A stretch of 56,561 bases of DNA, taken from positions 1 through 56,561 of the IMG/VR virus record IMGVR_UViG_3300033149_005620. The stretch is one strand, 5' to 3'. The DNA comes from a virus. Its lineage: Duplodnaviria; Caudoviricetes. Position numbers and translations under genes: made by a program. Position 1 is the stretch's first letter. Each line of letters opens with the position of its first letter. The notes under the pieces are model-generated. The model worked only from the letters and a program-made list of their open reading frames with translations. It had not been told where the DNA came from and searched no databases. Below are positions 10,906 through 47,090 of the stretch, one piece after another.

Positions 10906-12660
10906 CTAATCGGTCTCTGGTTCCGGTAAAGTGTCTTGCTCCCTCACCACCTGGGGCGGCCGCATATCCAGGTCATAAATCCTGCTCATAGCGTCCAGGA
11001 AGTCTTTCCATGTGGTTGCGGGAAAAAACAGATACTCGTTTTTGATGACGCGCTCAACCACGTTGTAAAGCTCGCCGTTCTCGTCCTTACGCATGATCCT
11101 GGTTGCTACAAGATAGGGCTTCCCTCTTTTGATGGCATCGGCCTGGAGCTTGGTCGCCCGGGGCTTGAAATTAAACTGATCTGCAACCCGGTCATACTCC
11201 ACTTCGGGGTAGAAGAACTTCCAGTTCTGGTGGTCGGGAATGAGGCGGCGAATCCTGTCGTCCTTTGCGCCCTGGGTCCGATCGCGGGGCCATGAGACTT
11301 CAGTGATCGGAAATGCCGCCTTTTCGATTTGCATCATTTGCTCATAGTGTTCAATGTCGGACTGCATGCCGTACTTTTCATAGGCTACCATGACGGTCTG
11401 GACCCCTGGCTGCTTGATCCACTTGTTCCGCAGATACTTGAGCATCCTCCATCTGGCTGCCAGATCCATCTTGTGACACGCACCATCCAGCAGATACTTG
11501 TTCCAGGCTGCGTCAATGCCAATGACCGCAAAAGCGGAGTTGCAAGACTCTTTCTTCTTCGAGGACGCCGGGTCAACACAGATTGCCACGTTGAGGGTTT
11601 CAGGCCTGATTTCCCACCTGCGGATCCACTCAGGCTTGAGTTCCTGTTCTTCGCCGGCCAGTGGGTTGAGGAGCATCTGGCAGGCGATCGTCCGTGGCGA
11701 GCTGTCTCGCTTTTTCTTCTCCCACTCCTTCGGGCTCAGCAGCACCGGCGCCCCATCGGGGGTCCCGCTATCGGTCGCAGGGTAAATGCGGGGCGTTGCA
11801 GCTTCCCTCTCCAACATAACCCCATAGGTATCGGCAAAATTGTACCTCGTTCCCACGTACCACTTTCTGGGCGGAGTCTTCTCGTCTATACGGGACGACA
11901 GGAAGTCGGAGAGCTCCCACGCCTCTGTCGTCTTGAGGATCATATCGGGTGTCGTCACCGATTTCTCCGTGACGACGTCGTCATAGATCATGAGTTTGAA
12001 GTGCTTTGAGGTGGGAAGGCCGTCAACTAGGCCCCAGCCGGAAAGGGTTGCCTCGTTCGGGTTGGAAACTCTCTTGCAGATGAGCCCGTCGTCTCTCGAC
12101 CAGACCGGGGCTTGCTTCCTGGGCTGATCCCAGAACACCGTGGGGTAGAATCTCGGGAGGAGCGGATTGTTTTCCAGTTCGCGCTTCACGCGCACCACGA
12201 AGTCGCGCGCTATCTTTGTATTGTGGCTGAAGATGCCGATGGTTATCTCTTGCCCTGGACCCCGGAAGTAGGCGTCGGGTGGGTCGAAGACCTGGTAAAG
12301 CGGGCTGTCCTTGGCTATTTCCTGGATTGCACCTGCGAAGGTCATGATACTCGTCTTGAAATGCTCCCGTGCCCATAAGTCCAGGTGCCCGTCGGGATTA
12401 GCTTCAACTTCCCTGCACCGCTCGTACAGCCACTCGGGGCGCCACGTGCGATTTATGACTGACTGCAAGCGCAGCACTTGCGTGATGAGGAAAAAGCGGT
12501 CATACAGACCTACTATCGCCAGGACTTGCTCGTCGAGATGAGGGTCGTTGAGCATCTCCCTGTAGATCCGGAGTGCACCGCTATACGATGCAAAAGGCAG
12601 ATACTCGGAGGCCTGCCTTGCGTACTCAAGGTTGCTCGGTTTTCTTATCGCATTTTCCAT
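10906..12660 (-). CDS. terL: Terminase large subunit
   Basis: Walker A-like AREHFKTS, Walker B MIYDDVV, VGTRY coupling motif, RNase H-like ICVDPA and DFLDAMS. Confidence 0.93.
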   Translation of the reverse strand: MENAIRKPSNLEYARQASEYLPFASYSGALRIYREMLNDPHLDEQVLAIVGLYDRFFLITQVLRLQSVINRTWRPEWLYERCREVEANPDGHLDLWAREHFKTSIMTFAGAIQEIAKDSPLYQVFDPPDAYFRGPGQEITIGIFSHNTKIARDFVVRVKRELENNPLLPRFYPTVFWDQPRKQAPVWSRDDGLICKRVSNPNEATLSGWGLVDGLPTSKHFKLMIYDDVVTEKSVTTPDMILKTTEAWELSDFLSSRIDEKTPPRKWYVGTRYNFADTYGVMLEREAATPRIYPATDSGTPDGAPVLLSPKEWEKKKRDSSPRTIACQMLLNPLAGEEQELKPEWIRRWEIRPETLNVAICVDPASSKKKESCNSAFAVIGIDAAWNKYLLDGACHKMDLAARWRMLKYLRNKWIKQPGVQTVMVAYEKYGMQSDIEHYEQMMQIEKAAFPITEVSWPRDRTQGAKDDRIRRLIPDHQNWKFFYPEVEYDRVADQFNFKPRATKLQADAIKRGKPYLVATRIMRKDENGELYNVVERVIKNEYLFFPATTWKDFLDAMSRIYDLDMRPPQVVREQDTLPEPETD

Positions 12661-15583: not shown

Positions 15584-16653
15584 GCGTAGGGCACCTCCTT
15601 TGATTTGAGCTGTTCGGATTGTTTTTTCAGCTGCTGCAATCGCTCCTCCTCGCTCATATCCATGCCTTTGGTCGCTTTATCCACCAGTCCAGCTAGATCC
15701 GGGGCGGCCACTGCCCTGAAGCATTTGGCGCACAATCCGGTTTCCAGATCGATCATCACGTTCGTAGCTCCGCAACCTTTACACCGTGAACTCTGTACTG
15801 GCTCCTGGAGGGGCGGACCGCTGGTCGGTTTATTGAACTCCACCCACTTGAGCACCCAGTTCCTCCACGCAGCGATCCAGTCGTTGAATTTACTTTCGAG
15901 CTTTTGGTGGTGAGCTTTAAACTTTTCGAATTGAAAGGGGACCTCCTCTTCGGGCATGTGATATCTTTTCGCATAAGCTTTCATCTCGCTGGTGGGATAG
16001 AAATTCTTTGGGAGTGGCACCTTGACTTTGAAGTGAAATTTCTCTCCCTCGGATTTTTTTGAATTTTTAGGGTGAGGAGGGTCCGCAGGTGCGGCCCTCA
16101 TATTCTCCTTCTCTATCTCCTTCTCCTTCTTTGTCTCTATCTCTATCTCCTTCTCTATCTCTGTCTCTGTCTCTTTTGTCTCCACACTTTGTGGACACTG
16201 TGTTGACACCATGGGGGACAAGGTGTGATACAAAGTGTCCACATCTTGTCTTTTAAGATGCTTCCCTCCGTACCTCCTGAGGGATTCCATCAGTGATTCC
16301 AGCAATGTAAAGGATGAGGGAATAATTTGTGAGACCATAGACAAGATTCCCTGGGCGTGACTTTCGTTTTTTGGAGGGTTCCATTTGAGGTATTTTTTGA
16401 TCAGCACAAATTTTGAGGTCTCGCAGTACTCCAAAAAACCTAATTTTTCAAGGTGTCGACATGATGTGGACACGATGTCCACACTATATCCCAGATCCTC
16501 CGCAATGTAGCTTCTTGGGAGCCGGAAGCAGCCTAAGGAGTTCCCGTGCTCACATGAAAGGAGGTATGCTCCTATCAGCTTGACCTGGTCCGTGAGGTTG
16601 TGGGCTTGAGCCCAGGACCAGTACCTTGTGTGGATTTTTCCGAATTCTCTCAT
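15580..16653 (-). CDS. Phage replication initiator (replisome organiser-like)
   Basis: N-terminal wHTH-like region (YIAEDLGYS), ETETEIEKE linker, C-terminal FEKFKAHH...DWIAAWRNW domain and a CxxC...CxxC motif. Confidence 0.8.
   Translation of the reverse strand: MREFGKIHTRYWSWAQAHNLTDQVKLIGAYLLSCEHGNSLGCFRLPRSYIAEDLGYSVDIVSTSCRHLEKLGFLEYCETSKFVLIKKYLKWNPPKNESHAQGILSMVSQIIPSSFTLLESLMESLRRYGGKHLKRQDVDTLYHTLSPMVSTQCPQSVETKETETEIEKEIEIETKKEKEIEKENMRAAPADPPHPKNSKKSEGEKFHFKVKVPLPKNFYPTSEMKAYAKRYHMPEEEVPFQFEKFKAHHQKLESKFNDWIAAWRNWVLKWVEFNKPTSGPPLQEPVQSSRCKGCGATNVMIDLETGLCAKCFRAVAAPDLAGLVDKATKGMDMSEEERLQQLKKQSEQLKSKEVPYA
16190..16482. repeat. Candidate iterons (replication origin) inside the initiator gene
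   Basis: TGT(G/T/C)GAC-type units about 11 bp apart at 16190 and 16201 and at 16454, 16465 and 16476; inverted GTGTCCAC at 16235; next to a pyrimidine tract at ~16103-16176. Confidence 0.55.
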
Positions 16654-18575: not shown

Positions 18576-19024
18576 TTGTTATGCCGTTCATAGATGACCG
18601 AATAGGAGGCATGGCCATGTCCGAGACAAAATCGCACCTGAATCTTTGCCTTGTTGCCTGCTGGAGTTTGGTCTGGTCAGCGACGATCCTTTCAAGGGGA
18701 CCAAAAGACCTCAGCCTCCTCTACTACATTGTATATTCTCGCCAGTTGCCCCTCAGGCCATTGATTTCTATACCCGTATACGTTTTTGGCGTTTGGCTCC
18801 TGGGTTGTGGTTCAATACTTCTCATCAGCAAAGCTATGACAGCGTTAACGCCTGAAAGATGGAGAGAAAACCGCGTCACCATTATTACCTGCGTTTTATT
18901 GGCCCTGTGGGCTTTTTACGCCCTGATGATTCTTGAGGACTCCGAGTTATGGGCATTCGGCACTTTTTTTATTGGTGTCCCCTTTCTGCTCATCTACATG
19001 TTCATCAAGAGCAGGAAAAAGTAA
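18572..19024 (+). CDS. Four-helix membrane protein (possible superinfection exclusion)
   Basis: Four hydrophobic segments; AGGAGG RBS before the internal Met. Confidence 0.6.
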   Translation: MIVMPFIDDRIGGMAMSETKSHLNLCLVACWSLVWSATILSRGPKDLSLLYYIVYSRQLPLRPLISIPVYVFGVWLLGCGSILLISKAMTALTPERWRENRVTIITCVLLALWAFYALMILEDSELWAFGTFFIGVPFLLIYMFIKSRKK

Positions 19025-19198
19025 TTCCATGACCGTCACCTCGCCATTGGTGGCTTCCTGGATCTTAAGGGCAAGCTCAGGAGAGGGGCGACGGGCACCA
19101 CGCAGGATGAGGCTAACAGCAGATTTCGAAATCGATAGCTGTTTTGCAAAGCCTGCTTGACTAAGTTTATATTTCTCTAAATAGTCTTTTATCCGCAT
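18947..19198 (-). CDS. Cro-like HTH regulator
   Basis: LSQAGFAKQLSISKSAVSLILRGARRPSPELALKIQEATNGEVT; divergent from the CI-like gene. Confidence 0.88.
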   Translation of the reverse strand: MRIKDYLEKYKLSQAGFAKQLSISKSAVSLILRGARRPSPELALKIQEATNGEVTVMELLFPALDEHVDEQKGDTNKKSAECP

Positions 19199-19214
19199 AG
19201 GAAATGTATATCAA

Positions 19215-19778
19215 ATGATTTACGACCCGTCAACGGTTTTATTGCTCCCCGGTAAGGAGTTTACTTGCCTTTTGAAGTCGTTCATGAAGACAAAGAAAAT
19301 CTCTTATAACGAATTGGCGCAGAGAATGGGGAAAACAAAGTCAGCCGTCCATAATAATCTGAAAGGCAATCCCAAAACACCCACCCGCGAAAAACTCCTT
19401 CAGGCATTAGGCGAAAAGGATGTCTTGCAGTATTATTTTAATAGCGTCCCGTCTTCACCAAAAAATGGAATAGAGATTGAGGCCAGAGATCTTGCCGTTA
19501 TCCAGGCAATGGCTGACGTAAAAGAAATCATGGAGTCGCGAAATGAGATTATCATCGCTGCCTTGCGGGCAAACATAGCAGCCTTTAAGGCAGCCGTCCG
19601 AGCTGAGGCAAGGTTGAAACAGAGCGAAGAGAAATGGAAGCATACCGAAACGAACCTAAAGCAAGAGATAGATAGGCTAGAAAAAAAAGTGCGATATCTG
19701 GAGCAGTTGGCCGGCCCCCAGCAAGAGTCCTCTACCGGAAAGGCAGATGGCATCGGTACGCAGAAAAAGAGAGTGTAA
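19215..19778 (+). CDS. CI-like XRE repressor with C-terminal coiled coil (likely start 19284)
   Basis: ISYNELAQRMGKTKSAVHNNLKG HTH; no S24 peptidase domain visible. Confidence 0.78.
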   Translation: MIYDPSTVLLLPGKEFTCLLKSFMKTKKISYNELAQRMGKTKSAVHNNLKGNPKTPTREKLLQALGEKDVLQYYFNSVPSSPKNGIEIEARDLAVIQAMADVKEIMESRNEIIIAALRANIAAFKAAVRAEARLKQSEEKWKHTETNLKQEIDRLEKKVRYLEQLAGPQQESSTGKADGIGTQKKRV

Positions 19779-19784
19779 TATACT

Positions 19785-20162
19785 TTGAATTTAGTTGAAG
19801 AAAGAATTGATTTTGGCTTGCAAAACTTGATGAAACTAGGAGGGGCTATGGAAAACCATGAAAGCGGAATGATTTTCAATATCCTGATCAAAGAAGACGA
19901 TGGCATGTTTGTCGCTCACTGTCTGGAGCTCGATATCGTTGCCACCGCGGAGAGTGTCGAACAAGCCCAGAAAGACATAATTGCCCTCATATGCGCTCAG
20001 GTCGACTACGCATTCAGCAACGATAATCTTGAGAACCTTTACTGTCCCGCCCCCGCAGAAGTATGGCAAGAGTTTTGGAGTGCAGAAAACAGCGGGGGAA
20101 GAGATATAAGATTGAAAATACCTTCAAAGCCTGAGCCTGAAATTTCTCTTGATTTTTGTTAG
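19785..20162 (+). CDS. HicB-like antitoxin-fold protein (orphan)
   Basis: ILIKEDDGMFVAHCLELDIVATAESVEQA; GGAGGGG RBS before MENHES. Confidence 0.65.
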   Translation: MNLVEERIDFGLQNLMKLGGAMENHESGMIFNILIKEDDGMFVAHCLELDIVATAESVEQAQKDIIALICAQVDYAFSNDNLENLYCPAPAEVWQEFWSAENSGGRDIRLKIPSKPEPEISLDFC

Positions 20163-20205
20163 AAAATGACGATATTATTTACGTGTGTTAAAAGCTGCTT
20201 TGAGT

Positions 20206-20276
20206 AAAAAGTGCCCCTTGTGACGCTTCGGGAAATTAAGAAATAGCTCGGAGCCGACCAAGGGGCTTTGCTTTTT
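20206..20276 (+). ncRNA. Long RNA hairpin in the leader of the NYN gene
   Basis: AAAAAGT/GCTTTTT, GCCCCTTG(20213-20220)/CAAGGGGC(20259-20266) and GCTTCGGG/CTCGGAGC stems; T-rich 3' end; possible promoter TTGATT(20149)-N18-TATTAT(20173). Confidence 0.55.
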
Positions 20277-20287
20277 GTGGAGGAGTC

Positions 20288-20920
20288 ATGCGGAGAGTTG
20301 TATTCATGATTGATGGTTGGTTCATGCGTAAAAGGATATATAAGCTCAAAACATTTTACTATTCAGGCCCTGAGATCCGCAAATACTGCTTAAAGCATTT
20401 GCGGGAGAACGATTATCTATACCGTATCTTCTATTATGATACCGCCCCTTTAGAGAAAAAGGGGCATAACCCCATATCAAAAAAAGCCATCGATTTCAGT
20501 CAGACCGCCGTAGCCAAAGCCCAGAGTAAGTTATTCGAATCCATAAAAACCACGCCTAACTTTGCCCTTCGCCTTGGTAAGGCGGTTTGGAAAAACAATG
20601 AATGGATACTGGCTCCAGATAAACTCAAATCACTGATAAGCAAAAATCTATCTGTTGATGATCTTTCTGAGCACGATGTTCGCCCCCTTATTGAGCAAAA
20701 GGCCGTTGATATGAGGATCGGCCTTGATATAGCCCTCATAGCGATAAAAAGAATAGCTGATTTATTGATCATTATCACCGGGGATGCAGATATTGTCCCT
20801 GCTTTGAAGTTTGCGAGACGTGAAGGCATGCAGGTTTGCCTTGATCCGCTACGCAATCCTATTCAACCGGAGCTGGAAGAACACGTGGATTTCATAGATA
20901 CAAAGATTCCCAAATTATAG
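20288..20920 (+). CDS. NYN-domain (PIN-like, LabA/DUF88) ribonuclease
   Basis: VFMIDGWF, YRIFYYD, EQKAVDMRIGLD, ITGDADIVPALKFARREG. Confidence 0.92.
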   Translation: MRRVVFMIDGWFMRKRIYKLKTFYYSGPEIRKYCLKHLRENDYLYRIFYYDTAPLEKKGHNPISKKAIDFSQTAVAKAQSKLFESIKTTPNFALRLGKAVWKNNEWILAPDKLKSLISKNLSVDDLSEHDVRPLIEQKAVDMRIGLDIALIAIKRIADLLIIITGDADIVPALKFARREGMQVCLDPLRNPIQPELEEHVDFIDTKIPKL

Positions 20921-21045
20921 GCCATTCATTCCTCCCTCATAATACCCGCTAGAGCTTTCCACCGAGATAACTAACCCTTGCCAATCATCTCTCCACCAGT
21001 GGCACTTGAGTGTAGGTTTTTATTGCCGAATCATATCTTTTTTAG

Positions 21046-21074
21046 TTGACAAGTTGTAAATCTTTTAATATACT
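21046..21074 (+). promoter_or_regulatory. Sigma70 promoter for the rightward early operon
   Basis: TTGACA(21046-21051)-17 bp-TATACT(21069-21074). Confidence 0.8.
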
Positions 21075-21083
21075 TCCCCAATC

Positions 21084-21338
21084 ATGACCACCAAAATCGT
21101 CATAGTCAAGCAGCATCTCTACGAAACCATCAAGGCCGATTTTAGGCGCCAGGGCTGGGAGTTCTGCTCCGCGGTGTTTAAGGGAGGCCTGGTCACGCTT
21201 GAGTTTAGCCTAACCCCGCCACGCCCCGCCAAGCCACGGCATGCCCTGCCAAGCTGGGCCACGTTGGGCCAAGCCTCGCCATGCCATGGAAACCAAAAAA
21301 CCAGTAAGGAGGACAGCAGATGTATGAAATCGAAGTAA
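21084..21338 (+). CDS. Small hypothetical protein, nearly leaderless; its C-terminal half reads through array 1
   Basis: The first ~43 aa look protein-like; the rest is repeat-derived low complexity (PPRPAKPRHA). Confidence 0.45.
   Translation: MTTKIVIVKQHLYETIKADFRRQGWEFCSAVFKGGLVTLEFSLTPPRPAKPRHALPSWATLGQASPCHGNQKTSKEDSRCMKSK
21206..21285. repeat. Pentamer array 1: 16 x NN-RCC (GGY-NN on the minus strand), candidate guide RNA
   Basis: taGCC taACC ccGCC acGCC ccGCC aaGCC acGGC atGCC ctGCC aaGCT ggGCC acGTT ggGCC aaGCC tcGCC atGCC. Confidence 0.9.
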
Positions 21339-21919
21339 CGGTAAGAGGTTTGACGCCGATCCTGATGCACAGCGCAAGAGCGATGATGGCCCAGGCCAGC
21401 GTAAGGACGCGCAGCCAGTCAATCCCGCTCTCGGAAGACGAAGCGGAGCTATCGGCGTACAAGACCGAGGATGGATTTCTCTACATGCCAGGTGATGCAT
21501 TTCGCTCATCCATCGTCCAGGCCGCCGGGCCTTACAAGCAGGGTCGCACCTCGGTCAAGAGCGTGCTGAGCGGCGCGATCCTGGAGATGAAACCGGAAGA
21601 GCTGATCCTGGTGCGTGATGGCAAACGCATCACCGAATACGCAGTGGATGTCCGCAGGGTGGTAGTGCAGGGGAACGCGGTCCTGCGCTCCAGGGCCAGG
21701 ATAGACCTCCCCTGGGAGACAACGTGGGAGATGTGGATCGATGAGAACATGTTCAACGAAAGCTTCATCAAGGATACCCTGCCAGATATTATCAACCGCG
21801 CCGGACTGGTGATAGGCGTGGGGGACTTCCGGCCCGGATCTCCGAAGTGCAAGACGGGGAGATTCGGGCGATACGAGATTGCGAAGTATGAGTTCCCGGT
21901 TAAGAAGGGGGGCAAGTAA
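21320..21919 (+). CDS. Stand-alone RAMP/Cas7-like protein
   Basis: N-terminal beta strand plus TP (IEVTVRGLTPILMH), YMPGDAFRSSI (like RAMP iPGSslKG), thumb-like VDVRRVVVQGNAVLRSRARI, C-terminal Gly-rich loop GVGDFRPGSPKCKTGRFGRY; AAGGAGG RBS. Confidence 0.72.
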   Translation: MYEIEVTVRGLTPILMHSARAMMAQASVRTRSQSIPLSEDEAELSAYKTEDGFLYMPGDAFRSSIVQAAGPYKQGRTSVKSVLSGAILEMKPEELILVRDGKRITEYAVDVRRVVVQGNAVLRSRARIDLPWETTWEMWIDENMFNESFIKDTLPDIINRAGLVIGVGDFRPGSPKCKTGRFGRYEIAKYEFPVKKGGK

Positions 21920-21928
21920 TGCTTTTAC

Positions 21929-21993
21929 ACGCCTAGCCCGGCCATGCCGAGCCCGGCCGAGCCGGGTCCGGCCGCGCCAAGCCAAGCCAAGCT
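21929..21993. repeat. Pentamer array 2: 13 x NN-RCC (GGY-NN on the minus strand), candidate guide RNA
   Basis: acGCC taGCC cgGCC atGCC gaGCC cgGCC gaGCC ggGTC cgGCC gcGCC aaGCC aaGCC aaGCT; fully intergenic. Confidence 0.9.
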
Positions 21994-22019
21994 TATTATG
22001 ATCAAGGGAGCGACACAGC

Positions 22020-22805
22020 ATGAAGCATCTGGAGAGTAAAGAAGTCAACATCGCAGAGCTGGTGCTGGACTTCAACATCTACCCCCGGCACACGATAAGC
22101 GACAGCACCGCCAGGAAGTATCAGGAGGCCTACAGCCTGGGGGCCGAGTTCCCTCCCGTGAGGGTGGAGGCCAGGTCAATGCGGGTGGTGGACGGATTTC
22201 ACCGCGTCGCCGCCTGCACCAGGAATAAATCCGATACCATCAAAGCAGAGCTCTACGAATTTGAGGATGATAAGGATCTCCTGTTCTGGGCAATGGCCTG
22301 GAATTCCACGCACGGCCAGAACCTGTCAGAGGTTGACTACGCCAGATGCTACCTGATCGGCACAAAGGCCGGAATGAAGCCGGAGCTGATAGCCGAAGCC
22401 CTGAGTGTGAAAATTACCAAGCTAAAGCACGCGAGGCAGAAAGGCGTCGCGGATCCCAAGCTCAGACGCGCAATAACGCACGCAGACTCAGCAATATTCA
22501 AGAAGCCATCCCGCAGTGACCTTGTCCAGCCCAAAATCAAGGAAGATGAGGAGCAAAAGAAGGTCAACAGGATCTTCGAGAGCCCCACCAGGCAGGGGGC
22601 GGAAAGAAAACCCGATGAGCCAGTGATAGACTGGCGCGAGCGCTACGAGAGGGAGCTGGAGATCAGGCTCGCCCTCGAGAAGGAGAACGAGAAGCTGAAG
22701 GAGCAGGTAAGACGACTGAAGGAGACAGTGTTTCGCCTCAGCCGGGAAATCAACCCCGATGAGCCTGAATTCGTCCCCGACGAGGCGGAGGACGCCGTGC
22801 TCTAA
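22020..22805 (+). CDS. ParB/Srx-like N-terminal domain protein with coiled coil
   Basis: IYPR, FPPVRV...VVDGFHRVAA, NSTHGQNLS, HTH-like IAEALSV. Confidence 0.82.
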   Translation: MKHLESKEVNIAELVLDFNIYPRHTISDSTARKYQEAYSLGAEFPPVRVEARSMRVVDGFHRVAACTRNKSDTIKAELYEFEDDKDLLFWAMAWNSTHGQNLSEVDYARCYLIGTKAGMKPELIAEALSVKITKLKHARQKGVADPKLRRAITHADSAIFKKPSRSDLVQPKIKEDEEQKKVNRIFESPTRQGAERKPDEPVIDWRERYERELEIRLALEKENEKLKEQVRRLKETVFRLSREINPDEPEFVPDEAEDAVL

Positions 22806-22817
22806 AGGGAGGCACTG

Positions 22818-23045
22818 ATGATGTCGGACCTGGAGCTTTTCGAAATTCATGAGGGAAGACGCAAGAAGGTCGCCATTGTGAGCGAGGAGATCATCTCGCG
22901 CATGGGGCCTGAGGCCTTCTTCCCGATCCAGAAAGCTCTGGGACGCATGTGGGACCCTACCCCGGATTCGTCTGGGAATCCGTTTAGCGCCCGGTCGCCC
23001 CAACAAGGGTGGGGTTGGGACCGCAAGCGCGACGGTGACAGGTAG
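22818..23045 (+). CDS. Hypothetical protein
   Basis: GGGAGG RBS. Confidence 0.5.
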   Translation: MMSDLELFEIHEGRRKKVAIVSEEIISRMGPEAFFPIQKALGRMWDPTPDSSGNPFSARSPQQGWGWDRKRDGDR

Positions 23046-23200
23046 GGCCAAGAAAATAAAGCGTAGGAGGTTAGGCAGGGGCGCGTAACCGGGCAACCTA
23101 ACAGCATAACCTTTTGAGCCCGGGCGGGACCTAGTGGCCTGCGGAGCCAAAGCCGGGGTCTCCGCCAGGCCCATGGCCCCGCCCCAGAAGGGAGAGGTTC

Positions 23201-23473
23201 GTGCCCCGAAAGGACACAAGGCAGCAGCTACCGCTTTTCACTCCTCTTGGCCGTGCATTCTCAGAAGAGCGCGAAGCTGCCGACATGCGCATAATGGTTT
23301 TGGATTCCCTTGCGAAGCAATGGTACGGAGGCCTCCAGCGGGTCGAAGGTGAGAACTGTATCGAATGCGGAAAACCGCTCTACTTCCACTGGAATTACTT
23401 GAACTCCAAGTCGAAGGCGATTGTCTATTGCAGAGATTGCGGATGGCATACGGAGGTGCAGCTCAATGATTGA
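23201..23473 (+). CDS. Zinc-ribbon protein
   Basis: CIECG...YCRDCGW. Confidence 0.6.
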   Translation: MPRKDTRQQLPLFTPLGRAFSEEREAADMRIMVLDSLAKQWYGGLQRVEGENCIECGKPLYFHWNYLNSKSKAIVYCRDCGWHTEVQLND

Positions 23474-23625
23474 TAACCCAATCTATAGTGAACTTGACCG
23501 CCTCTACCAGCAGAACCTGGAATTGCGGCAGAGGCTCGGCAGTGTCCTTGCGGAAAACAGGCGACTCAGGAGGACGTTGGGGCTTATCGTGAAGGTTCTG
23601 AAATATAACTTACCGAGGAGGAAAA

Positions 23626-24747
23626 ATGAGCAAACACGATAGCGCATCAGCACAGGAACAAAAGGAGTTTTCCCTGGAGGAATACAGGGCAAGGTCGTTC
23701 AACGTGTTAGTCCCCACCCAAACCCTCAGGACCTATTCCGACATGCACGAGCCCGTCCTTGAGCAGGTGTTCCTATCACCCAACCCGGACGACGGCGACG
23801 TGTACGTCCAGGAGCAGGGGAATCAAAGGAAGCCCACCAAATACGCGCTTACTAAGCAGGCACTCATGAAGCTGAGCCTTTGCGCTGGCATCATGTGGCA
23901 CCCTGCCGAGACAAGGCGCACGGATGACAGAAGCGATAAGAATTATGTGAGCTATCAAGCAGTCGGCGGGGTGCGCAAGTCCGACGGCACCTGGGTGTTC
24001 TGGAAGGGGGAGTACGACCTCGACTTTGAGGTCATCGAGATGGAGCTGGAGGAGCAGTACCGCAACAAGGCCGAGAAATACGAGGCCGACGAGGACGCCA
24101 CCTGGTGGCAGAAGAAGACTGAGGATGAAAAGGAAGCTTACATTCAGCGCTGCATCCGGAGGGACCTGCTCCAGAAGCGGAAGCATAAACTGAAACTGGC
24201 CGAATCCGGCGCAATGAACAGGGTGATCCGCGCCGTCCTCGGGATGAAAAGCACCTACACCAAAAAGGAGCTGGAACAGCCCTTTGTTGTGGCCCGGGTT
24301 GTATTCCGTCCCGATTACTCGGACCCGGAGGTTAGGCGGCAGCTCACCGAGGCGTCCATAGACGCTATGACGAGCATCTACGGCCCCCCCAGGGGCGCAT
24401 ACAAAGCGGGGGCGCCGGCGCCGGGCTCTGACCCTGGTCCTGGGAAGCCGCCGGATCAACAACGGCCCCCTGGGTCTCACACCATCATCGACGTAGAACC
24501 CGAGGAACCCCCGGACCCTGAAAACGGAGAGGCAGAGGGAGGACCGCCCGAGGGGGACAGCAGGGAAGTTGATTTCATCAACAGCGGCGTGGATGACCAG
24601 ATAAAGACCCTGACTCTGCTTGCAGCGCGTAAGGGCTATGACATGACGCAGCTCAAGAGGCCCATACTACAGTGGGAGCCTGAACACCGCATAGGCTTCT
24701 TCCGGAAGCTTAATTCCATGCCCGACAAAGAGGAGAACCCGTACTAG
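23626..24747 (+). CDS. Putative recombination/ssDNA-annealing protein
   Basis: 373 aa with a Pro-rich linker, upstream of SbcCD; function inferred from context only. Confidence 0.45.
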   Translation: MSKHDSASAQEQKEFSLEEYRARSFNVLVPTQTLRTYSDMHEPVLEQVFLSPNPDDGDVYVQEQGNQRKPTKYALTKQALMKLSLCAGIMWHPAETRRTDDRSDKNYVSYQAVGGVRKSDGTWVFWKGEYDLDFEVIEMELEEQYRNKAEKYEADEDATWWQKKTEDEKEAYIQRCIRRDLLQKRKHKLKLAESGAMNRVIRAVLGMKSTYTKKELEQPFVVARVVFRPDYSDPEVRRQLTEASIDAMTSIYGPPRGAYKAGAPAPGSDPGPGKPPDQQRPPGSHTIIDVEPEEPPDPENGEAEGGPPEGDSREVDFINSGVDDQIKTLTLLAARKGYDMTQLKRPILQWEPEHRIGFFRKLNSMPDKEENPY

Positions 24748-25383: not shown

Positions 25384-25655
25384 GATTGAACCAAGAGGTG
25401 ATTCAAACGATTGAGGAGAGCGTAAGCAGGCTCTTGTCGGAATACAAGGATGAACTGAATGAAGCCTATCTCAAATGCGACGAGAGGAAATTCTCCATAG
25501 CGCTGGGAACAAAGATTGAGGAGACCGACAACGGCCGCTTCAAAGTAGAGACCTCGATCAGCTTCGTGAAGGATAAGGTCAAGGACTCGACCATCGACTA
25601 TGTCGATGCCGAGCAAGTCTCATTCAACTTCAAAAACTCGGAGGCAGGCTCGTGA
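25380..25655 (+). CDS. Hypothetical protein
   Basis: Coupled to the sbcD-like gene. Confidence 0.65.
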   Translation: MRLNQEVIQTIEESVSRLLSEYKDELNEAYLKCDERKFSIALGTKIEETDNGRFKVETSISFVKDKVKDSTIDYVDAEQVSFNFKNSEAGS

Positions 25656-26887
25656 AGATATTCCACTTGGCAGACCTGCATATTCGTGACCACGATATAG
25701 ATCAGTGCTGGCGTTGCCTGCATGCTGTAACAGAAAAGGCGCAGGTGGAGCGGCCCGACCTCGTGGTCGTGGCGGGAGATATTTTCGACAACCAGGCGGT
25801 CAAGCTCGGGTCGGATTCGGCAAGGCTCGCGGTGGGCTGGTTCTCCCAGATAGCAGCTATTGCGCCGGTGATATGTGTAACGGGAACGCCGTCGCACGAC
25901 GGCAAAGCGCCCGAAATACTGGCACACATCAATAACCCGGGCATCTGGGTATCTGCGGTGCCGGAGCAGATCGTAGTCGCGAAGGGGGAAATCTGGACAA
26001 TGCAGGATTTCTGGGACACCGCATCCCCTGACATAAGCGATTGCGACTTGATCGTAAGTCTTGTTCCCGCGCCGACAAAGCAGTTCTGGGACAGCCGCGG
26101 CGGGATCCTCGAGACGGACCAGGAAATCTCTCAGACCATGAGCGGCATCTTCGCAGGGTTCGGGGACATCGCTTCGCAGTTTAGCTGCCCCCACATTTTA
26201 GTGGGCCACTTCTCTGTCCGGGGCGCAGAGATATCTGAAAGCCAGGTCATGGTCGGGCGCGAGATTGAGATTGGCAAAGACCAGCTTTCACTGGCCAACG
26301 CCCACCTGGTTCTCCTCGGGCACATACACAAGCGCCAGAGTATCGAACCCAACATCTTCTATTCCGGGTCCCTTTACCCTCTCAATTATGGCGAGAAGGA
26401 AGATAAGGGCTATTACATACAGACAATTGATGGGACCGCAACGCTGTCCCAATTCATCAAAACACCCCACCGCAAACTCACAAGGCTCATATATGACTTC
26501 ACCCGCCATGAGGAGGATACGCTGCACGACCTAGACATCGTGCTGTATAGCCTGGCCCCTGAAGAGGTCCAGGGGGCTGCCCTGCGCGTGGAGCTGAGGG
26601 TGTGGCAGGATGAAGCGGAACAGTTGGACCCTGAGGGAATCAAGAAATTCTACCTTGACGGCGACTTTAGCGTTTACAGGGCAAGCTCGGTTGAGGTGCG
26701 GATCGTGCGAGTACCCAGGGAGAATGTGAGGTGCGAAACTATCCTGAAAGCGCAAAAGCTGAGAGAGAAAATTCTTGAGCGAGCCCGGGTGTCCGGAGAA
26801 AACGGGGTGCCGGAGAGCATTCTGGAAAAGGCCGATAGCCTCGAAGCCCTGCCAGCACAGGAGCTTGTCGAGCGGGTATCACGCTAA
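25652..26887 (+). CDS. sbcD: SbcD/Mre11-like metallophosphoesterase nuclease
   Basis: HLADLH, AGDIFD, GTPSHD, LVGHF, LGHIH, YSGSL. Confidence 0.9.
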   Translation: MKIFHLADLHIRDHDIDQCWRCLHAVTEKAQVERPDLVVVAGDIFDNQAVKLGSDSARLAVGWFSQIAAIAPVICVTGTPSHDGKAPEILAHINNPGIWVSAVPEQIVVAKGEIWTMQDFWDTASPDISDCDLIVSLVPAPTKQFWDSRGGILETDQEISQTMSGIFAGFGDIASQFSCPHILVGHFSVRGAEISESQVMVGREIEIGKDQLSLANAHLVLLGHIHKRQSIEPNIFYSGSLYPLNYGEKEDKGYYIQTIDGTATLSQFIKTPHRKLTRLIYDFTRHEEDTLHDLDIVLYSLAPEEVQGAALRVELRVWQDEAEQLDPEGIKKFYLDGDFSVYRASSVEVRIVRVPRENVRCETILKAQKLREKILERARVSGENGVPESILEKADSLEALPAQELVERVSR

Positions 26888-26913: not shown

Positions 26914-27162
26914 TTGAAAGGAGGCGTAATGGAGAAGAAGATAGGCCCTACCGGCAGATTTCCGGAGGGCAAGATTAACGAGCATGATGAGGGCGAGCTC
27001 CGGATCGGCATCCCGACCGATGGGGAAAAGGTCGTGGTCAGTTTCGGCGTGCCCGTGTTGTGGCTCGCCATGACTGGAGATCAAGCGATAGAACTGGGCG
27101 ATGCGTTGACGAAGCATGGCCGCAAGGCCAACGGCTGGGACGGAGGAATAAATGAAAATTGA
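26914..27162 (+). CDS. Hypothetical protein
   Basis: GPTGRFPEGKINEHDEGELRIGI; GGAGG RBS before MEKK. Confidence 0.65.
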   Translation: MKGGVMEKKIGPTGRFPEGKINEHDEGELRIGIPTDGEKVVVSFGVPVLWLAMTGDQAIELGDALTKHGRKANGWDGGINEN

Positions 27163-29455
27163 GTCGATCAAACTGCGCGGATTCATCGGCATCAAGAAAG
27201 GGCTGGGGCTCGACGACCTCGCCCTTGATCTGTCCAGTCTTTCCGGTCTGGTTGCTATTGCCGGGCAAAACGGCAGGGGGAAGACCTCACTCCTTGAGAA
27301 CCTCCAACCGTTTCGCGCCTTCGCATCACGCAAGAGGGCGCTGCAGCACCACGTGTTCTTGAGGGATAGCTACAGGGAGCTTTCCTTCAGGTGGAATGGC
27401 GATGTCTACCGGACCCTCCTGAAGATTGATTGTGACAGCGAGCGCCAGGAAGGGTTTATCTGGAAGAACGGGGATCCCCAGGTGAACGGCAAGGTGCGGG
27501 ACTACGATCGCTATATTGAGGGGCTCTTCGGTAGTTCTCGGCTCTTTTTCAACAGCGTGTTCTGCGCCCAGGGCGCAGAAAAAATCACGGACATGACCCC
27601 GGGGCAGCTTAAATCGTTGTTTACCGAATTCCTCCGCCTGGACCGCTACGTTGAATGGGAGCAGACCGCGAAGCAAATTGGCCAGGTCCTGAGTGGAAAG
27701 GCAAACCAGTTGCAAAAAGAGGTCCAGCACCTTGAACGCATAGTGGGCGAGATCGAAGGGCTGAGGATAAAGCTGATCACGGAAAGGCAGCGGTATGAGC
27801 AACAGAATAAGCGAACCCAGGGGCTGGCAGGTGAGTTGGAGCGCGTAAAGAATGAGCTTGACATTGCCAGCGAGACTGAGAGCAAGAACAGGGTCCTGCG
27901 CGCTAAGCTCGATGCCTACAGCGAAAGCCATGAGGCCGCCCGGAGGGACCTTGCAGCCATTGAGGGGGATGCCCGGGAGGAGATTGAAAGGTTTGGCCGG
28001 GAAATAGCTAAGCTTGAGGGGGAAATTGCGCGCTATAAGGGCATCCTTGAGGAAGGCGACAGGATCACCAGTGCGGTGAGGGAATCAGAGGAGGCCGCTG
28101 CGAGGCTAGCAGGTCTCCTAAAGGATCTGGAGGATACGAGGGCAAAAAATGATGAAGCCCAAGGTTCTATTGGCAGAGTAAAGGAGGAGCTCGCCAAAGC
28201 GAAGGCTGAAAAAGCGAGCTTGAGCGAAGCTAAGGACCTCGCAGTCCTTGAGGCCAGGCTCAAGGCAGCGAAGGAGGATTTGAAGACTTTAAATCTCCGC
28301 GACCCTGCCTGCCGGTCCACTACCTGCTCATTTATCGCCAGGTCCATAGAATCCCAAAAAGCGATTCCGGGCCTCGAACGCCAGATAGGAGAATTAAAAG
28401 CCGAGCAGGAAAAGCGGCTTGAGGCGGTGGAAAAAGACATCCGCTCCGCTACCGAAAGGTTGCGCTCCCTTGAGGGTGAGCAGGGTAAACTCGGTGAGAG
28501 CATCGCGCGGGTCAAAAAAGCGATCACAGAGCAGCAACAGATAATCAGCCGGAACAAGGCATTCGGGGATAAGGCATCCCAACTTGAGACGGCGCGTGCA
28601 GCAGTTTCCTCTACAGACGACCGGCTGTTCGCTCTGGTGAAGGATCGCCATCTGGCCAAGGAGAAATGGGATAAGAAGGTACGCGCCAAGCAGGAGGAAA
28701 TCAGGGTACTCGCAAAGATGAAAGAGGAGGTCAAAGCGGGGATAGACGAGAAAGCGGAGTCAAGGGTCGCGGAGCTGAAAGGGAAGATTGAGGCTCTGCA
28801 AGGGGAGTTCGCCCAGGGTGAAAAGGCGTGCGCCGAAACCTCCAGGAACATCGCGGTGCTTGAAAATCAGCTTCAACAGGCGGAACGGGAGAAAGAAAAG
28901 CTTGCTGCGCTACAAGGAGAAATTGGGAGGGTGAAGAACGAGGTGTCTGAGTGGGCATACCTACAGACGGCGTGCGGGGCGAATGGCCTCAGGGCGCTGG
29001 AGATTGATAGCGTCGCGCCGGCCATCAGCGCATACGCGAACGAATTGCTCAGCCAGGCTTTTGGCCCTCTGTTCACGGTGCGCCTCCGGACCCAGGACGA
29101 GGAGGGCAGGGAAGTTCTGCAAGTCCTCGTCATGCGGGAGGACGGCAGCGAGCCGCTGCTTGAGAACCTCTCAGGCGGGGAGAAAATATGGATACTAAAG
29201 GCTCTGCGCCTGGCAATGACGCTGATCAGCAAAGAAAAGAGCGGCCACAATTTCCTCACGTGTTTGGCCGACGAGGAAGATGGGGCGCTGGACGTAGAAA
29301 ACGCCTTGAACTTCATTCGCCTGTATAGAGCGTTCATGGTCTCTGGCGGGTTTGAATCATGCTTTTTCATCAGCCATAAGCCAGAGTGCGTGGCCATGGC
29401 GGATCACCAGGTGCTGTTTCAGAGCGGCGGAGTTGAGGTGAACGCAGGCGCATAG
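27152..29455 (+). CDS. sbcC: SbcC/Rad50-like SMC ATPase
   Basis: Walker A GQNGRGKTS, long coiled coils, central CRSTTC hook, LSGGE signature, Walker B/D-loop LADEEDGALD, ISH. Confidence 0.92.
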   Translation: MKIESIKLRGFIGIKKGLGLDDLALDLSSLSGLVAIAGQNGRGKTSLLENLQPFRAFASRKRALQHHVFLRDSYRELSFRWNGDVYRTLLKIDCDSERQEGFIWKNGDPQVNGKVRDYDRYIEGLFGSSRLFFNSVFCAQGAEKITDMTPGQLKSLFTEFLRLDRYVEWEQTAKQIGQVLSGKANQLQKEVQHLERIVGEIEGLRIKLITERQRYEQQNKRTQGLAGELERVKNELDIASETESKNRVLRAKLDAYSESHEAARRDLAAIEGDAREEIERFGREIAKLEGEIARYKGILEEGDRITSAVRESEEAAARLAGLLKDLEDTRAKNDEAQGSIGRVKEELAKAKAEKASLSEAKDLAVLEARLKAAKEDLKTLNLRDPACRSTTCSFIARSIESQKAIPGLERQIGELKAEQEKRLEAVEKDIRSATERLRSLEGEQGKLGESIARVKKAITEQQQIISRNKAFGDKASQLETARAAVSSTDDRLFALVKDRHLAKEKWDKKVRAKQEEIRVLAKMKEEVKAGIDEKAESRVAELKGKIEALQGEFAQGEKACAETSRNIAVLENQLQQAEREKEKLAALQGEIGRVKNEVSEWAYLQTACGANGLRALEIDSVAPAISAYANELLSQAFGPLFTVRLRTQDEEGREVLQVLVMREDGSEPLLENLSGGEKIWILKALRLAMTLISKEKSGHNFLTCLADEEDGALDVENALNFIRLYRAFMVSGGFESCFFISHKPECVAMADHQVLFQSGGVEVNAGA

Positions 29456-33715: not shown

Positions 33716-33945
33716 TCGGGGCATTGGAGCGGGCAAGGGCCGGAAGCCCTATAAGGCGGTCACTGAATGCCCAAGCACAAGTTGTCCCTTGCACCGATAT
33801 CGCATTGGGAAAGACCCTGGTCGAAAGAAAAAGGGTGGCAACCCGAAAGTAATTCAGGATTCCGTCTCGGCCTATCTTAGGTAGGCCAAAATTACCCCAA
33901 CTCAGTTGGCAATTTTTGAACGAGACTTGATTTTCTATGGCCTCC

Positions 33946-33974
33946 TTGACATCTACCCCTTACCAACGTAAGAT
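33946..33974 (+). promoter_or_regulatory. Sigma70 promoter of the integrase
   Basis: TTGACA(33946)-17 bp-TAAGAT(33969); implies the true start is the ATG at 34015. Confidence 0.7.
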
Positions 33975-34014
33975 CGGCCCCGTATCAGCCAAATCTGGGG
34001 TTGGGGGCGATTGC

Positions 34015-35157
34015 ATGAAAGGGGGAATCTATTCTGATGAAAAGTGCCCCTTATGCGGGGGCAGGTTTAAAGATGATGGTCGGAGGGGACTCTTCTGCCC
34101 GAACCATCCAGAGCAAAGGGCCAGCAGGCGGTTTCGGATCTACTTCAGGGGGGTCACACGGCGTTTCAGGAGCTACGAGGCCGCTCAAAAATGCCTCACT
34201 GGCCTCAGGTTCAAGGAGGATGAGGGAACGTTCGACCCCAGGGAATATCGGGCTGATAATCCCCTTGGGTTTGAAAATCTAGCCAATGAGTGGCTCCGCC
34301 TCCGAGAGGCGGAGATCAGGCCGGACGGCATCAGCCCAAACACCTATCGGGCCCTTGAAGACCATATTTGGAAGGCGATTCGAGTTTTTGGCCCTGTCAG
34401 CGTAAAACGCCTGCGCCTGAAAGACTTCCAGTTTTTTCTCACCCAGTATAACGTCAGCAATAAGAGCAAATTCAATTATATTCAGACACTTAAGCAGTTC
34501 TTCAAGTGGCTTTACGATAATGATGAGATCTCGGTAATGCCCAAGTTCCCGAAGGTCCAGTTTGAGCTTCGCCGGCGAAAGACTGTTACGAAGGCAGACC
34601 AATTCGGTATCTTGGATACGCTGAAGGGGTGGGCCCCCTACAAGACCTGGCTGGGCATCAAATGGATGACCACCTACTTTAACGTGCGGCCCGAGGAATG
34701 GCGCAATATCCGGGAAGGGGACATCAACCTGAAGGCAAGAGAGATCCTGATACGGCACCCCAAGGAGAATAGGTCCAAAATCGTGTATCTCATTGACGAA
34801 GACGTGGAGATCTTGGGGGCCCTACCCCCTTGCATAGATCCTGACGCCTATTTCTTCCGCCATAAGAATGGGAGGCAATTCGGCGAGAAACATTTTTACA
34901 AGTGGTGGAAGCGGGCCTGTGCCAAGCTCGGAATCCAGGGAGTGGACCTCTACGGGGGCACTACCCACTCAACCACCAGGGCTCTCAGAAAATACCGCAC
35001 CCCGGAGGAGATCCGCTATGGCTCGATGAGGAGCACTACCAAGGCATTTGACCGCTACTACTGGGAGGAAGGAGACGACCTCAGGGCCATCTATTCCGAT
35101 GCTAGGGGTGGCAAAAAAGTGGCAAAGAAATTTAGGCACTCCGAAAGCGATAACTAA
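34015..35157 (+). CDS. int: Tyrosine integrase with N-terminal Zn ribbon
   Basis: CPLCGG...CPNH; core-binding helices; VRPEE, HPKE, LYGGTTHS, FDRYY; adjacent attP. Confidence 0.88.
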   Translation: MKGGIYSDEKCPLCGGRFKDDGRRGLFCPNHPEQRASRRFRIYFRGVTRRFRSYEAAQKCLTGLRFKEDEGTFDPREYRADNPLGFENLANEWLRLREAEIRPDGISPNTYRALEDHIWKAIRVFGPVSVKRLRLKDFQFFLTQYNVSNKSKFNYIQTLKQFFKWLYDNDEISVMPKFPKVQFELRRRKTVTKADQFGILDTLKGWAPYKTWLGIKWMTTYFNVRPEEWRNIREGDINLKAREILIRHPKENRSKIVYLIDEDVEILGALPPCIDPDAYFFRHKNGRQFGEKHFYKWWKRACAKLGIQGVDLYGGTTHSTTRALRKYRTPEEIRYGSMRSTTKAFDRYYWEEGDDLRAIYSDARGGKKVAKKFRHSESDN

Positions 35158-35177
35158 CCGATATTATTGCAAATCGC

Positions 35178-35206
35178 TGGTCGGGACGACTGGATTTGAA
35201 CCAGCG
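35178..35206 (-). other. attP core matching the 3' end of a tRNA (probably tRNA-Pro)
   Basis: Minus strand CGCTGGTTCAAATCCAGTCGTCCCGACCA is a T-arm, acceptor strand and CCA with no 5' half. Paired 11-bp-spaced arm-like sites flank it: GTGGCAAA at 35108/35119 and GCGGCAAA/ATGGTAAA at 35241/35252. Confidence 0.85.
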
Positions 35207-38085: not shown

Positions 38086-38135
38086 AAGTATGGCAAGTCG
38101 TGGCAGTTTATGGCGTTTTATGGCATCTTATGGCA
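38086..38135. repeat. Five 10-bp tandem units NNNNNTGGCR
   Basis: aagtatggca agtcgtggca gtttatggcg ttttatggca tcttatggca. Confidence 0.75.
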
Positions 38136-47088: not shown

Positions 47089-47090
47089 TT

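Follow-up and report, generated by a model that had tools for sequence, protein, structure and literature searches.

Introduction

VIPR systems were first described in 2026, and almost all of the functional work in the available preprints was done on one Escherichia coli phage. Escherichia phage SUSP1 and a prophage of Pseudomonas fulva serve as the type examples (10.64898/2026.04.26.720920, 10.64898/2026.04.26.720927, 10.64898/2026.10.15.759431). As described, these systems are phage-borne and pair a minimal RAMP protein, Vipr, with vrRNAs made up of 9–16 YNNGG units followed by an invariable tail (10.64898/2026.04.26.720920). The NN bases of the vrRNA pair with double-stranded DNA, one target base being skipped per unit, and binding represses transcription. 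The natural targets given in the same preprint are competing phages and satellites, with no self-targets among them, and the non-canonical scaffold variants that it names are NNNGG, YNNNG and NNNNG (10.64898/2026.04.26.720920). The cryo-EM preprint reports one Vipr protomer per repeat and an R-loop that grows 3′ to 5′ along the vrRNA (10.64898/2026.04.26.720927). In the SUSP1 model drawn in the VIPR preprints, the GGY triplet is held in protein pockets, the two free bases pair with the DNA, and the R-loop triplex blocks transcription. A later preprint shows that it is the wobble base of the codon that is skipped, so that synonymous mutations offer no escape, and that solo vrRNAs exist (10.64898/2026.10.15.759431); another describes 21 clusters with non-canonical triplets, for example GAC/NN and CAC/NN (10.64898/2026.10.21.760802). 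According to the 2026 VIPR work, the GGY guide RNAs of rivals can also hijack or redirect a phage’s Vipr.

The locus described here has several traits in common with these systems. It is carried by a phage and encodes a minimal RAMP homologous to SUSP1 Vipr. Its arrays, of 12 and 16 five-base units in which a constant triplet alternates with two variable bases, stand on either side of vipr. Under the one-skip rule, array 2 matches a coding motif conserved in a competing phage; the wobble base is the one skipped, and there is no self-target. The two-gene core is accompanied by a candidate accessory gene predicted to be DNA-binding. Other features set the locus apart. The GGY strand lies opposite vipr, as in 0 of 82 array-bearing relatives, or else the scaffold is GCC. 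There is no recognisable structured 3′ tail or pseudoknot, whereas the SUSP1 clade has a pseudoknot. The candidate accessory gene is ParB-like, and the word ‘ParB’ is absent from those main texts of the VIPR preprints that were searched; the supplements may cover it. The predicted target is the terminase large subunit, in contrast to the satellite recombinase or lysis–lysogeny regulator of the published examples. Finally, the host probably belongs to the order of a Desulfobacterales metagenome-assembled genome (MAG), rather than to Enterobacteria or Pseudomonas.

The backbones of class 1 CRISPR-Cas systems, formed by Cas7, Csm3 or Cmr4 on crRNA, have in common with the protein studied here a RAMP fold with a G-loop and a thumb (as judged by Foldseek) and, to go by the VIPR preprints, one protomer per short RNA segment with periodically flipped bases. 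They differ in that the period here is 5 instead of 6, the guide is non-contiguous and the system is phage-encoded.

In the trp RNA-binding attenuation protein, TRAP, an oligomer with one subunit per triplet recognises (G/U)AG-NN repeats with a period of about 5; the spacers carry no information, and the fold is unrelated to RAMP. The array that is our subject resembles a TRAP site in its fixed triplet and two-base spacer, but its spacers carry specificity. A TRAP-like reading, with information-free spacers, was dropped because of the RAMP fold of the neighbouring gene product, the VIPR literature and the terminase target found.

The DNA analysed, referred to below as the window, spans the whole of IMG/VR virus record IMGVR_UViG_3300033149_005620 (Duplodnaviria, Caudoviricetes), which is complete at 56,561 bases and carries direct terminal repeats. 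An initial annotation had singled out a short array of dinucleotides between a RAMP gene and a ParB-like gene. We show how this array, array 2, compares with VIPR guide arrays and which gene it probably targets.

Results

Two period-5 arrays flank a RAMP gene

Array 2 consists of 12 triplets at an exact period of 5, separating 13 dinucleotides, just as the initial annotation had listed them. On the plus strand it reads AC GCC TA GCC CG GCC AT GCC GA GCC CG GCC GA GCC GG GTC CG GCC GC GCC AA GCC AA GCC AA GC, with 11 GCC triplets and one GTC. The plus strand is thus an array of GCC/NN units and the minus strand one of 12 GGC/NN units, one of them GAC; both arrays of the locus fit the published GGY + NN unit only when read on the minus strand. 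As had been noticed earlier, array 2 begins directly behind the RAMP gene: 9 bases intervene between the stop codon (21917–21919) and the array, and 26 bases separate its end from the ATG (22020) of the next ORF. The description of the array as intergenic is reasonable, because the two mechanically called ORFs that overlap it (21879–22001, plus strand, 40 aa; 21506–22078, minus strand, 190 aa) have no match in Pfam. An Rfam search of 19000–24000 returned two chance-level snoRNA matches and nothing else.

To place the array against the background of the genome, the window was scanned with a five-triplet period-5 pattern, allowing up to 2 mismatches, alongside 100 dinucleotide-preserving shuffles. 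The pattern matched 20 times, against a mean of 0.22 and a largest value of 2 in the shuffles, and all 20 matches fell in 21208–21290 or 21926–21993. A run of six GGY triplets at the same spacing was found at 11 places in the whole virus record, every one of them on the reverse strand and within the two arrays; this pattern revealed no third array in the complete 56,561-base record. The coordinates of the features discussed here are collected in Table 1.

The sister array, array 1, ends about 30 bases before the start of the vipr ORF and is less regular, 3 of its 16 minus-strand triplets departing from GGY (AAC, AGC and GCC). The dinucleotides of the two arrays are distinct, as the initial annotation had it, the first TA being the sole item in common, and no copy of array 2 identical to that in the window was found elsewhere. 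For the orphan ORF spanning array 1, a search of the protein collection found no homologue; its status as a gene is doubtful, and it could be a leader.

Table 1 Features of the window discussed in the text
Feature	Coordinates	Strand	Description
Phage’s own terminase large subunit	10906–12660	minus	phrog_38, E 7e-29
Sigma-70-like promoter	21046–21074	plus	TTGACA, 17 bp, TATACT; 11/12, near-consensus
Orphan ORF, 84 aa	21084–21338	plus	Reads through array 1; no Pfam or PHROG family
Array 1	21208–21290	minus	Looser 16-unit sister of array 2, with the same triplet
vipr	21320–21919	plus	199-aa minimal RAMP (Cas7-like), G-loop GVGDFRP...GRFGRY
Array 2	21929–21993	minus (strand inferred)	Candidate vrRNA guide gene; repeat scans and target matches
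CATAAT, −10-like hexamer	21995–22000	minus	Would place the RNA start on the first array 2 unit, given a minus-strand RNA
ParB-like gene	22020–22805	plus	phrog_1033 ‘ParB-like partition protein’, E 2.1e-7; candidate vipr-accessory (vap) gene
Integrase	33937–35157		Phage gene

The gene between the arrays encodes a Vipr homologue

The vipr product matches phrog_4652, a family of unknown function (E 1.3e-14), and no Pfam, NCBIfam or PADLOC family. An AlphaFold2 model built from seven sequences reached a mean pLDDT of 75.6 and a pTM of 0.75. Compared with the PDB by Foldseek, the model placed Csm3/Cas7 chains of type III and type VII CRISPR complexes at the top (E from 5e-5, probability 1.00, TM 0.43–0.53). 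We then combined the window protein with its 6 nearest homologues in a profile (A1). Searched against the PDB, this profile retrieved one distinct sequence, 36pp_D ‘SUSP1 Vipr protein’, with an E value of 1.6e-16. The window protein by itself reached the SUSP1 Vipr chain with E 0.34 only, and membership in the Vipr family therefore rests on the profile. Both searches bear out the earlier suggestion that the neighbouring gene encodes a RAMP, and since its product is a RAMP and a profile-level homologue of SUSP1 Vipr, we consider the locus a VIPR system and array 2 very probably one of its guide arrays.

The family is large, with 6034 cluster representatives at E <= 1e-3. The best homologue of the window protein shares 36% identity with it, and a single-protein search of genome contigs and viral contigs found no close relatives. 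In SUSP1 Vipr, the contacts to G1, G2 and Y3 are made by D177, W178 and R179 of the G-loop and R138 of the thumb (10.64898/2026.04.26.720927). D169, F170, R171 and R125 align with these residues in the window protein and are the same as in GGY-using relatives; in the HMMER alignment to the SUSP1 Vipr chain, GVGDWRP stands opposite the family’s GVGDFRP, and SYRP opposite RSRP. The ORF is intact and keeps the conserved residues. Over residues 171–199 (21830–21919), the window protein differs from its six nearest homologues in two ways: the G-loop carries an insertion of 4 residues directly behind D-F-R-P, and the protein’s C-terminus is longer. Of 37 columns conserved in the family, it deviates from the consensus in 10. 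Beyond array 2 on the minus strand, the sequence would open with the antisense of this C-terminal extension.

A tandem-repeat scan of the whole window found no CRISPR repeat-spacer array (period of about 60–80 bp), and no other cas genes were seen near vipr, the neighbours being a NYN-domain gene, the ParB-like gene and orphans; PADLOC gave no match for the RAMP. The NYN-domain protein, encoded just upstream of the VIPR locus (20288–20920; Pfam NYN E 2e-6, phrog_5783 E 2e-58), shows weak matches to HEC-09 and NYN in PADLOC and is a possible RNase.

Most related loci carry arrays on the vipr strand

A blastn search with 20900–22900 found no nucleotide relatives among phages. At the protein level, tblastn with the window Vipr identified 34 phage records, 25 from Mycobacterium phages, 7 from Gordonia phages, one from a Pseudomonas phage and one unclassified. 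Three of these records, all from cultured and deposited phages (Saal, LESphi2 and DSL-LC04), were inspected, and in each of them long GGC/NN or GGT/NN arrays occupy the space ahead of the vipr homologue (L001:2065-2290 in Mycobacterium phage Saal, L002:2084-2386 in Pseudomonas phage LESphi2 and L003:2137-2387 in phage DSL-LC04). The vipr homologues of these cultured phages are annotated as hypothetical proteins and, in DSL-LC04, as a helix-turn-helix regulator. The annotated ORF of Saal begins well upstream of the part homologous to Vipr.

We extended the comparison to 94 related loci, comprising the 3 cultured phages, 11 loci from IMG/VR and 80 metagenome loci, and counted arrays of at least 7 units. 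GGY/NN arrays were present on the vipr strand in 82 loci, on the opposite strand in none, and were absent from 12. The window is therefore the sole case among 83 array-bearing loci (the 82 relatives and itself) in which the scaffold strand opposes vipr. In the canonical arrays, the commonest departures from GGY are GCT (62) and GCC (53), which makes the middle position of the triplet the most tolerant.

The ParB-like gene downstream of array 2 passed no Pfam, NCBIfam or PADLOC family. Its homologues lie directly downstream of vipr in 3 of the 94 loci (L023, L024 and L026), which are also the three closest to the window. All three preserve the order of array, vipr, array and ParB-like gene, a single strand carrying all of it, and the gene order of L026 is that of the window. 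By analogy with the published loci, the ParB-like gene is a likely candidate for the accessory protein gene of this VIPR locus.

Some canonical arrays of the collection have one-skip matches in other loci of the same set (L055:1760-1822 against L052 and L080; L034:1159-1216 against L089; L080:1784-1861 against L052). These matches fall within 2 kb of vipr in the other loci, so that VIPR loci target other VIPR neighbourhoods. Guide–target mismatches among the metagenome vipr loci cluster at the 5′ end of the guide.

Array 2 matches a conserved motif in the terminase of foreign phages

The gapped search proposed in the initial annotation was run with ten of the dinucleotides, TA CG AT GA CG GA GG CG GC AA in plus-strand sense, with one skipped base between neighbours. 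It led to one conserved terminase motif in foreign phages and prophages. Exact matches were found in 5 viral contigs of IMG/VR, 5 of 5 in the terminase motif, where the reversed control gave 1 match, and in a single genome contig, from an uncultured Desulfobacterales MAG, again in the terminase motif (1 of 1). With up to 2 mismatches allowed, 209 genomes of that MAG’s order yielded 4 places in 3 genomes, against 0 for the reversed control. All 9 distinct sites fall on the same place of one protein, a terminase large subunit of about 535 aa (phrog_2, E 4.9e-30; weak Terminase_6C), where the motif reads YRMERDGRAN apart from single E, K and Q variants.

All 9 sites are in frame, and the skipped base is codon position 3 throughout. 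Pairwise identity over the sites is 0.98 at the positions that are read and 0.46 at those that are skipped. The ten units match 20 of 20 bases at 7 sites and 19 of 20 at the other 2. Outside this match are the leading AC and the last two AA of array 2; taken over all 13 dinucleotides the score is 19–21 of 26, around the 80% line of the VIPR preprint.

No self-target of array 2 exists in the window, the best match (16/26) being at the level of shuffled dinucleotide orders. The phage’s own terminase (phrog_38) is of another family than the targeted terminase, and the guide does not match it; a tblastn search for a homologue of the targeted terminase in the window returned nothing below E 1.5.

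That array 2 is a second guide with a specificity of its own, as had been proposed, agrees with its RAMP neighbour, with dinucleotides that differ from those of array 1 and with the match of 10 of its 13 dinucleotides to the foreign terminase motif. These comparisons of sequence provide strong evidence for array 2 as a working, or recently working, guide against rival phages, and by analogy with the SUSP1 system it would bind DNA and silence its target.

For array 1, four sub-patterns were searched in the viral contigs and the 9-unit pattern alone gave matches. These were three identical sequences in a short ORF of WhiB-like appearance, each scoring 22/34 with codon position 1 as the skipped base; being out of wobble register, they were rejected as chance. 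The array had no site in the five contigs targeted by array 2 (0 places) or in G006 (0), and in the 209 genomes of the one order it gave 0 places and its control 2. Array 1 may have its target outside the sequences searched, or it may be decaying.

Which strand is the guide RNA

The GGC strand of the arrays opposes vipr, unlike in every relative examined, and therefore either the guide is antisense or a sense RNA uses a GCC/NN scaffold. We consider the first probable: array 2 would be a VIPR vrRNA gene whose RNA is the minus strand, antisense to the vipr operon and directed at the terminase motif. The canonical GGC triplet occurs only on the minus strand, and this reading needs no new biochemistry. 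The two array 2 units without a partner in the target (AA AA) stand at the 5′ end of a minus-strand RNA and at the 3′ end of a plus-strand RNA; the cryo-EM preprint puts the start of the R-loop at the 3′ end of the vrRNA and the last pairing steps at its 5′ end (10.64898/2026.04.26.720927). When 140 canonical guides were compared with 397 kb of related loci, 3 independent guides had targets. In each of these three pairs the unmatched units were at the 5′ end of the guide; two of the pairs were complete at the 3′ end.

Under this reading, a minus-strand RNA of 12 canonical GGC/NN units would start beside a weak CATAAT (22000–21995), and Vipr protomers would polymerise on it, one per 5-nt unit, following the SUSP1 model, with the ParB-like gene downstream supplying the likely accessory protein. 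The ten 3′-proximal dinucleotides of the RNA would specify YRMERDGRAN codons in the terminase large subunit of unrelated phages and prophages. Because the skipped base falls on the wobble position, synonymous variation would give no escape, and a rival sharing the host would, with its terminase gene silenced, be unable to package its DNA.

The CATAAT had been pointed out in the initial annotation and is present. Its best −35 partner is TTCATG at 18 bp, a score of 8/12 that is under the threshold of the promoter scan; no minus-strand promoter passed that scan, and for array 1 no candidate was seen. It also counts against this reading that an RNA made from the minus strand of array 2 would extend into the vipr coding sequence. 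In minus-strand sense, both arrays close with GGGY-TA-GGC, and TAAA follows. The minus-strand flanks have fold z-scores of +0.42 and −1.27, and their similarity to canonical tails reached shuffle level in 43 of 100 and 85 of 100 shuffles. Taken together, the four candidate flanks span z-scores from −1.27 to +1.07, no stabler than shuffles, and neither strand shows a tail likeness to 156 canonical arrays beyond the shuffle level. One plus-strand comparison of array heads with the canonical arrays was matched by 2 of 100 shuffles and is not relied on. The arrays of the close relatives have short tails only.

The same VIPR system, guide and target could also be read with the plus strand as the RNA, co-transcribed with vipr on a non-canonical GCC/NN scaffold whose middle base is C, not G, and bound by a Vipr of altered or relaxed specificity. 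This is a possible but tentative alternative. It draws first on layout: the position and spacing of the arrays match the closest canonical loci, especially L026, where all is on one strand, and the near-consensus promoter lies directly upstream of the orphan ORF, from where transcription through both arrays, vipr and the ParB-like gene would yield RNA of the GCC sense. The unmatched AA AA at the 3′ end would recall the arrays of the ParB-like subclade, which end AA GGC AA GGG or AG GGC AG GGT, constant within a locus. The last dinucleotide is AA in 39 of 156 canonical arrays, and the plus strand of array 2 ends AA AA AA. An end-dinucleotide profile of the 156 arrays favours the plus strand for array 2 (+2.6 versus −2.5 nats) and is neutral for array 1, which is not decisive. 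Nor is dinucleotide composition, where the AA run of array 2 brings its plus strand about 3.4 nats and array 1 comes out at about 0. Further points in its favour are GCT and GCC as the commonest departures from GGY, at the most tolerant position of the triplet, the G-loop insertion and the off-consensus columns of the window Vipr, and the non-canonical triplet clusters already on record.

Set against this, the residues aligned with the G1, G2 and Y3 contacts are unchanged from those of GGY-using relatives, and a near-uniform GCC (24 of 29 triplets over both arrays) would need a strong new preference, beyond tolerance. The unmatched units would sit at the 3′ end, where the cryo-EM preprint has the R-loop begin. 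‘GCC’ has 0 occurrences in the main text of 10.64898/2026.10.21.760802, and GCC is not among the variants NNNGG, YNNNG and NNNNG that 10.64898/2026.04.26.720920 names. The minus strand as guide RNA is the reading we prefer.

The phage and its probable host

The phage is probably temperate. The 34 bases just beyond the integrase gene (35173–35206) are attP-like and match the 3′ end of a tRNA-Pro(CGG) gene (97%, E 3e-7; L117:1453-1534) in G102, a genome of the same order as the Desulfobacterales MAG. G102 also contains a perfect array 2 target in a terminase gene 28 kb from the tRNA-Pro. With the tRNA match and the target in one genome, it is plausible that the phage infects the same hosts of that order as its predicted rivals. 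We also considered whether the targeted prophage of G102 is integrated at the same tRNA-Pro gene and rejected this, as the terminase is 28 kb away on the 5′ side of the tRNA. No ORF over 250 aa lies within 1.5 kb of this tRNA gene.

Several further features of the genome were noted in passing. A lower-GC region near divergent HTH genes holds about 11 copies of a TCTCTA-like hexamer repeat (16103–16174), also seen at periods of 18, 24 and 30. A single ORF of 3015 aa occupies 38128–47175 on the minus strand, and a 10-bp repeat, TGGCATTTTA, is present in 3.6 copies just upstream of it (38101–38136). The early region encodes an SbcD-like/SbcC-like nuclease pair (25652–26887 and 27152–29455; phrog_100 and phrog_77).

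Discussion

The identification of array 2 as a guide has to be weighed against the arrays being decaying, unexpressed remnants, or the terminase match fortuitous. Array 1 has no target that we could find and 3 irregular triplets, and the canonical strand offers no good promoter and no tail, all of which would fit decay. Array 2, on the other hand, keeps 11 of 12 triplets intact; its full matches at seven terminase sites and near-full matches at two, all in frame and wobble-tolerant, stand against 1 and 0 control matches; and vipr is an intact ORF with its conserved residues. We therefore regard decay or coincidence as improbable.

Least credible of all is that the arrays act as DNA, as a centromere-like or operator site for the ParB-like protein with no RNA guide. 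In its favour, array 2 adjoins the ParB-like gene, and a strand-symmetric duplex repeat would account for the indifferent orientation. Against it, the repeat lacks the palindromic form usual in partition sites, and the dinucleotides differ between the arrays, for which a shared binding site would have no use. Read by the published rule, moreover, the dinucleotides of array 2 give the motif of a foreign terminase, and the controls came close to zero. Period-5 arrays accompany vipr in 82 of 94 loci, while a ParB-like homologue is present in 3 of 94; this distribution largely disposes of the binding-site idea that the initial annotation had kept in reserve.

With VIPR already in print in three 2026 preprints, the locus is not categorically new. 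What may be new is the reversed relation between the scaffold strand and vipr, or else a GCC scaffold, together with the ParB-like candidate accessory gene and a well-supported terminase target, although the supplements of the preprints may cover some of this. The locus adds to VIPR a complete, probably temperate phage with a predicted host, and a putative ParB-like accessory gene common to the window and three relatives.

The predicted target is concrete and checkable, and it is a natural one. A single guide covers a conserved terminase motif across divergent rivals because the skipped positions fall on wobble bases. The escape-proof design that the preprints report for a satellite recombinase would here be aimed at the packaging motor.

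The strand exception means either that vrRNA genes are workable as independent antisense units inside a vipr operon or that a scaffold may switch to another triplet. Should the vrRNAs come from the minus strand, they would be exact complements of two parts of the vipr mRNA, its leader and its intercistronic region, and this complementarity could couple guide production to vipr expression. If the scaffold is GCC/NN, a private orthogonal triplet would insulate the system from the GGY guide RNAs of rivals and would add a second programmable DNA-binding module that is orthogonal by nature. The answer, whichever it is, matters for the production of VIPR guides, for their movement and for ways of rendering them orthogonal.
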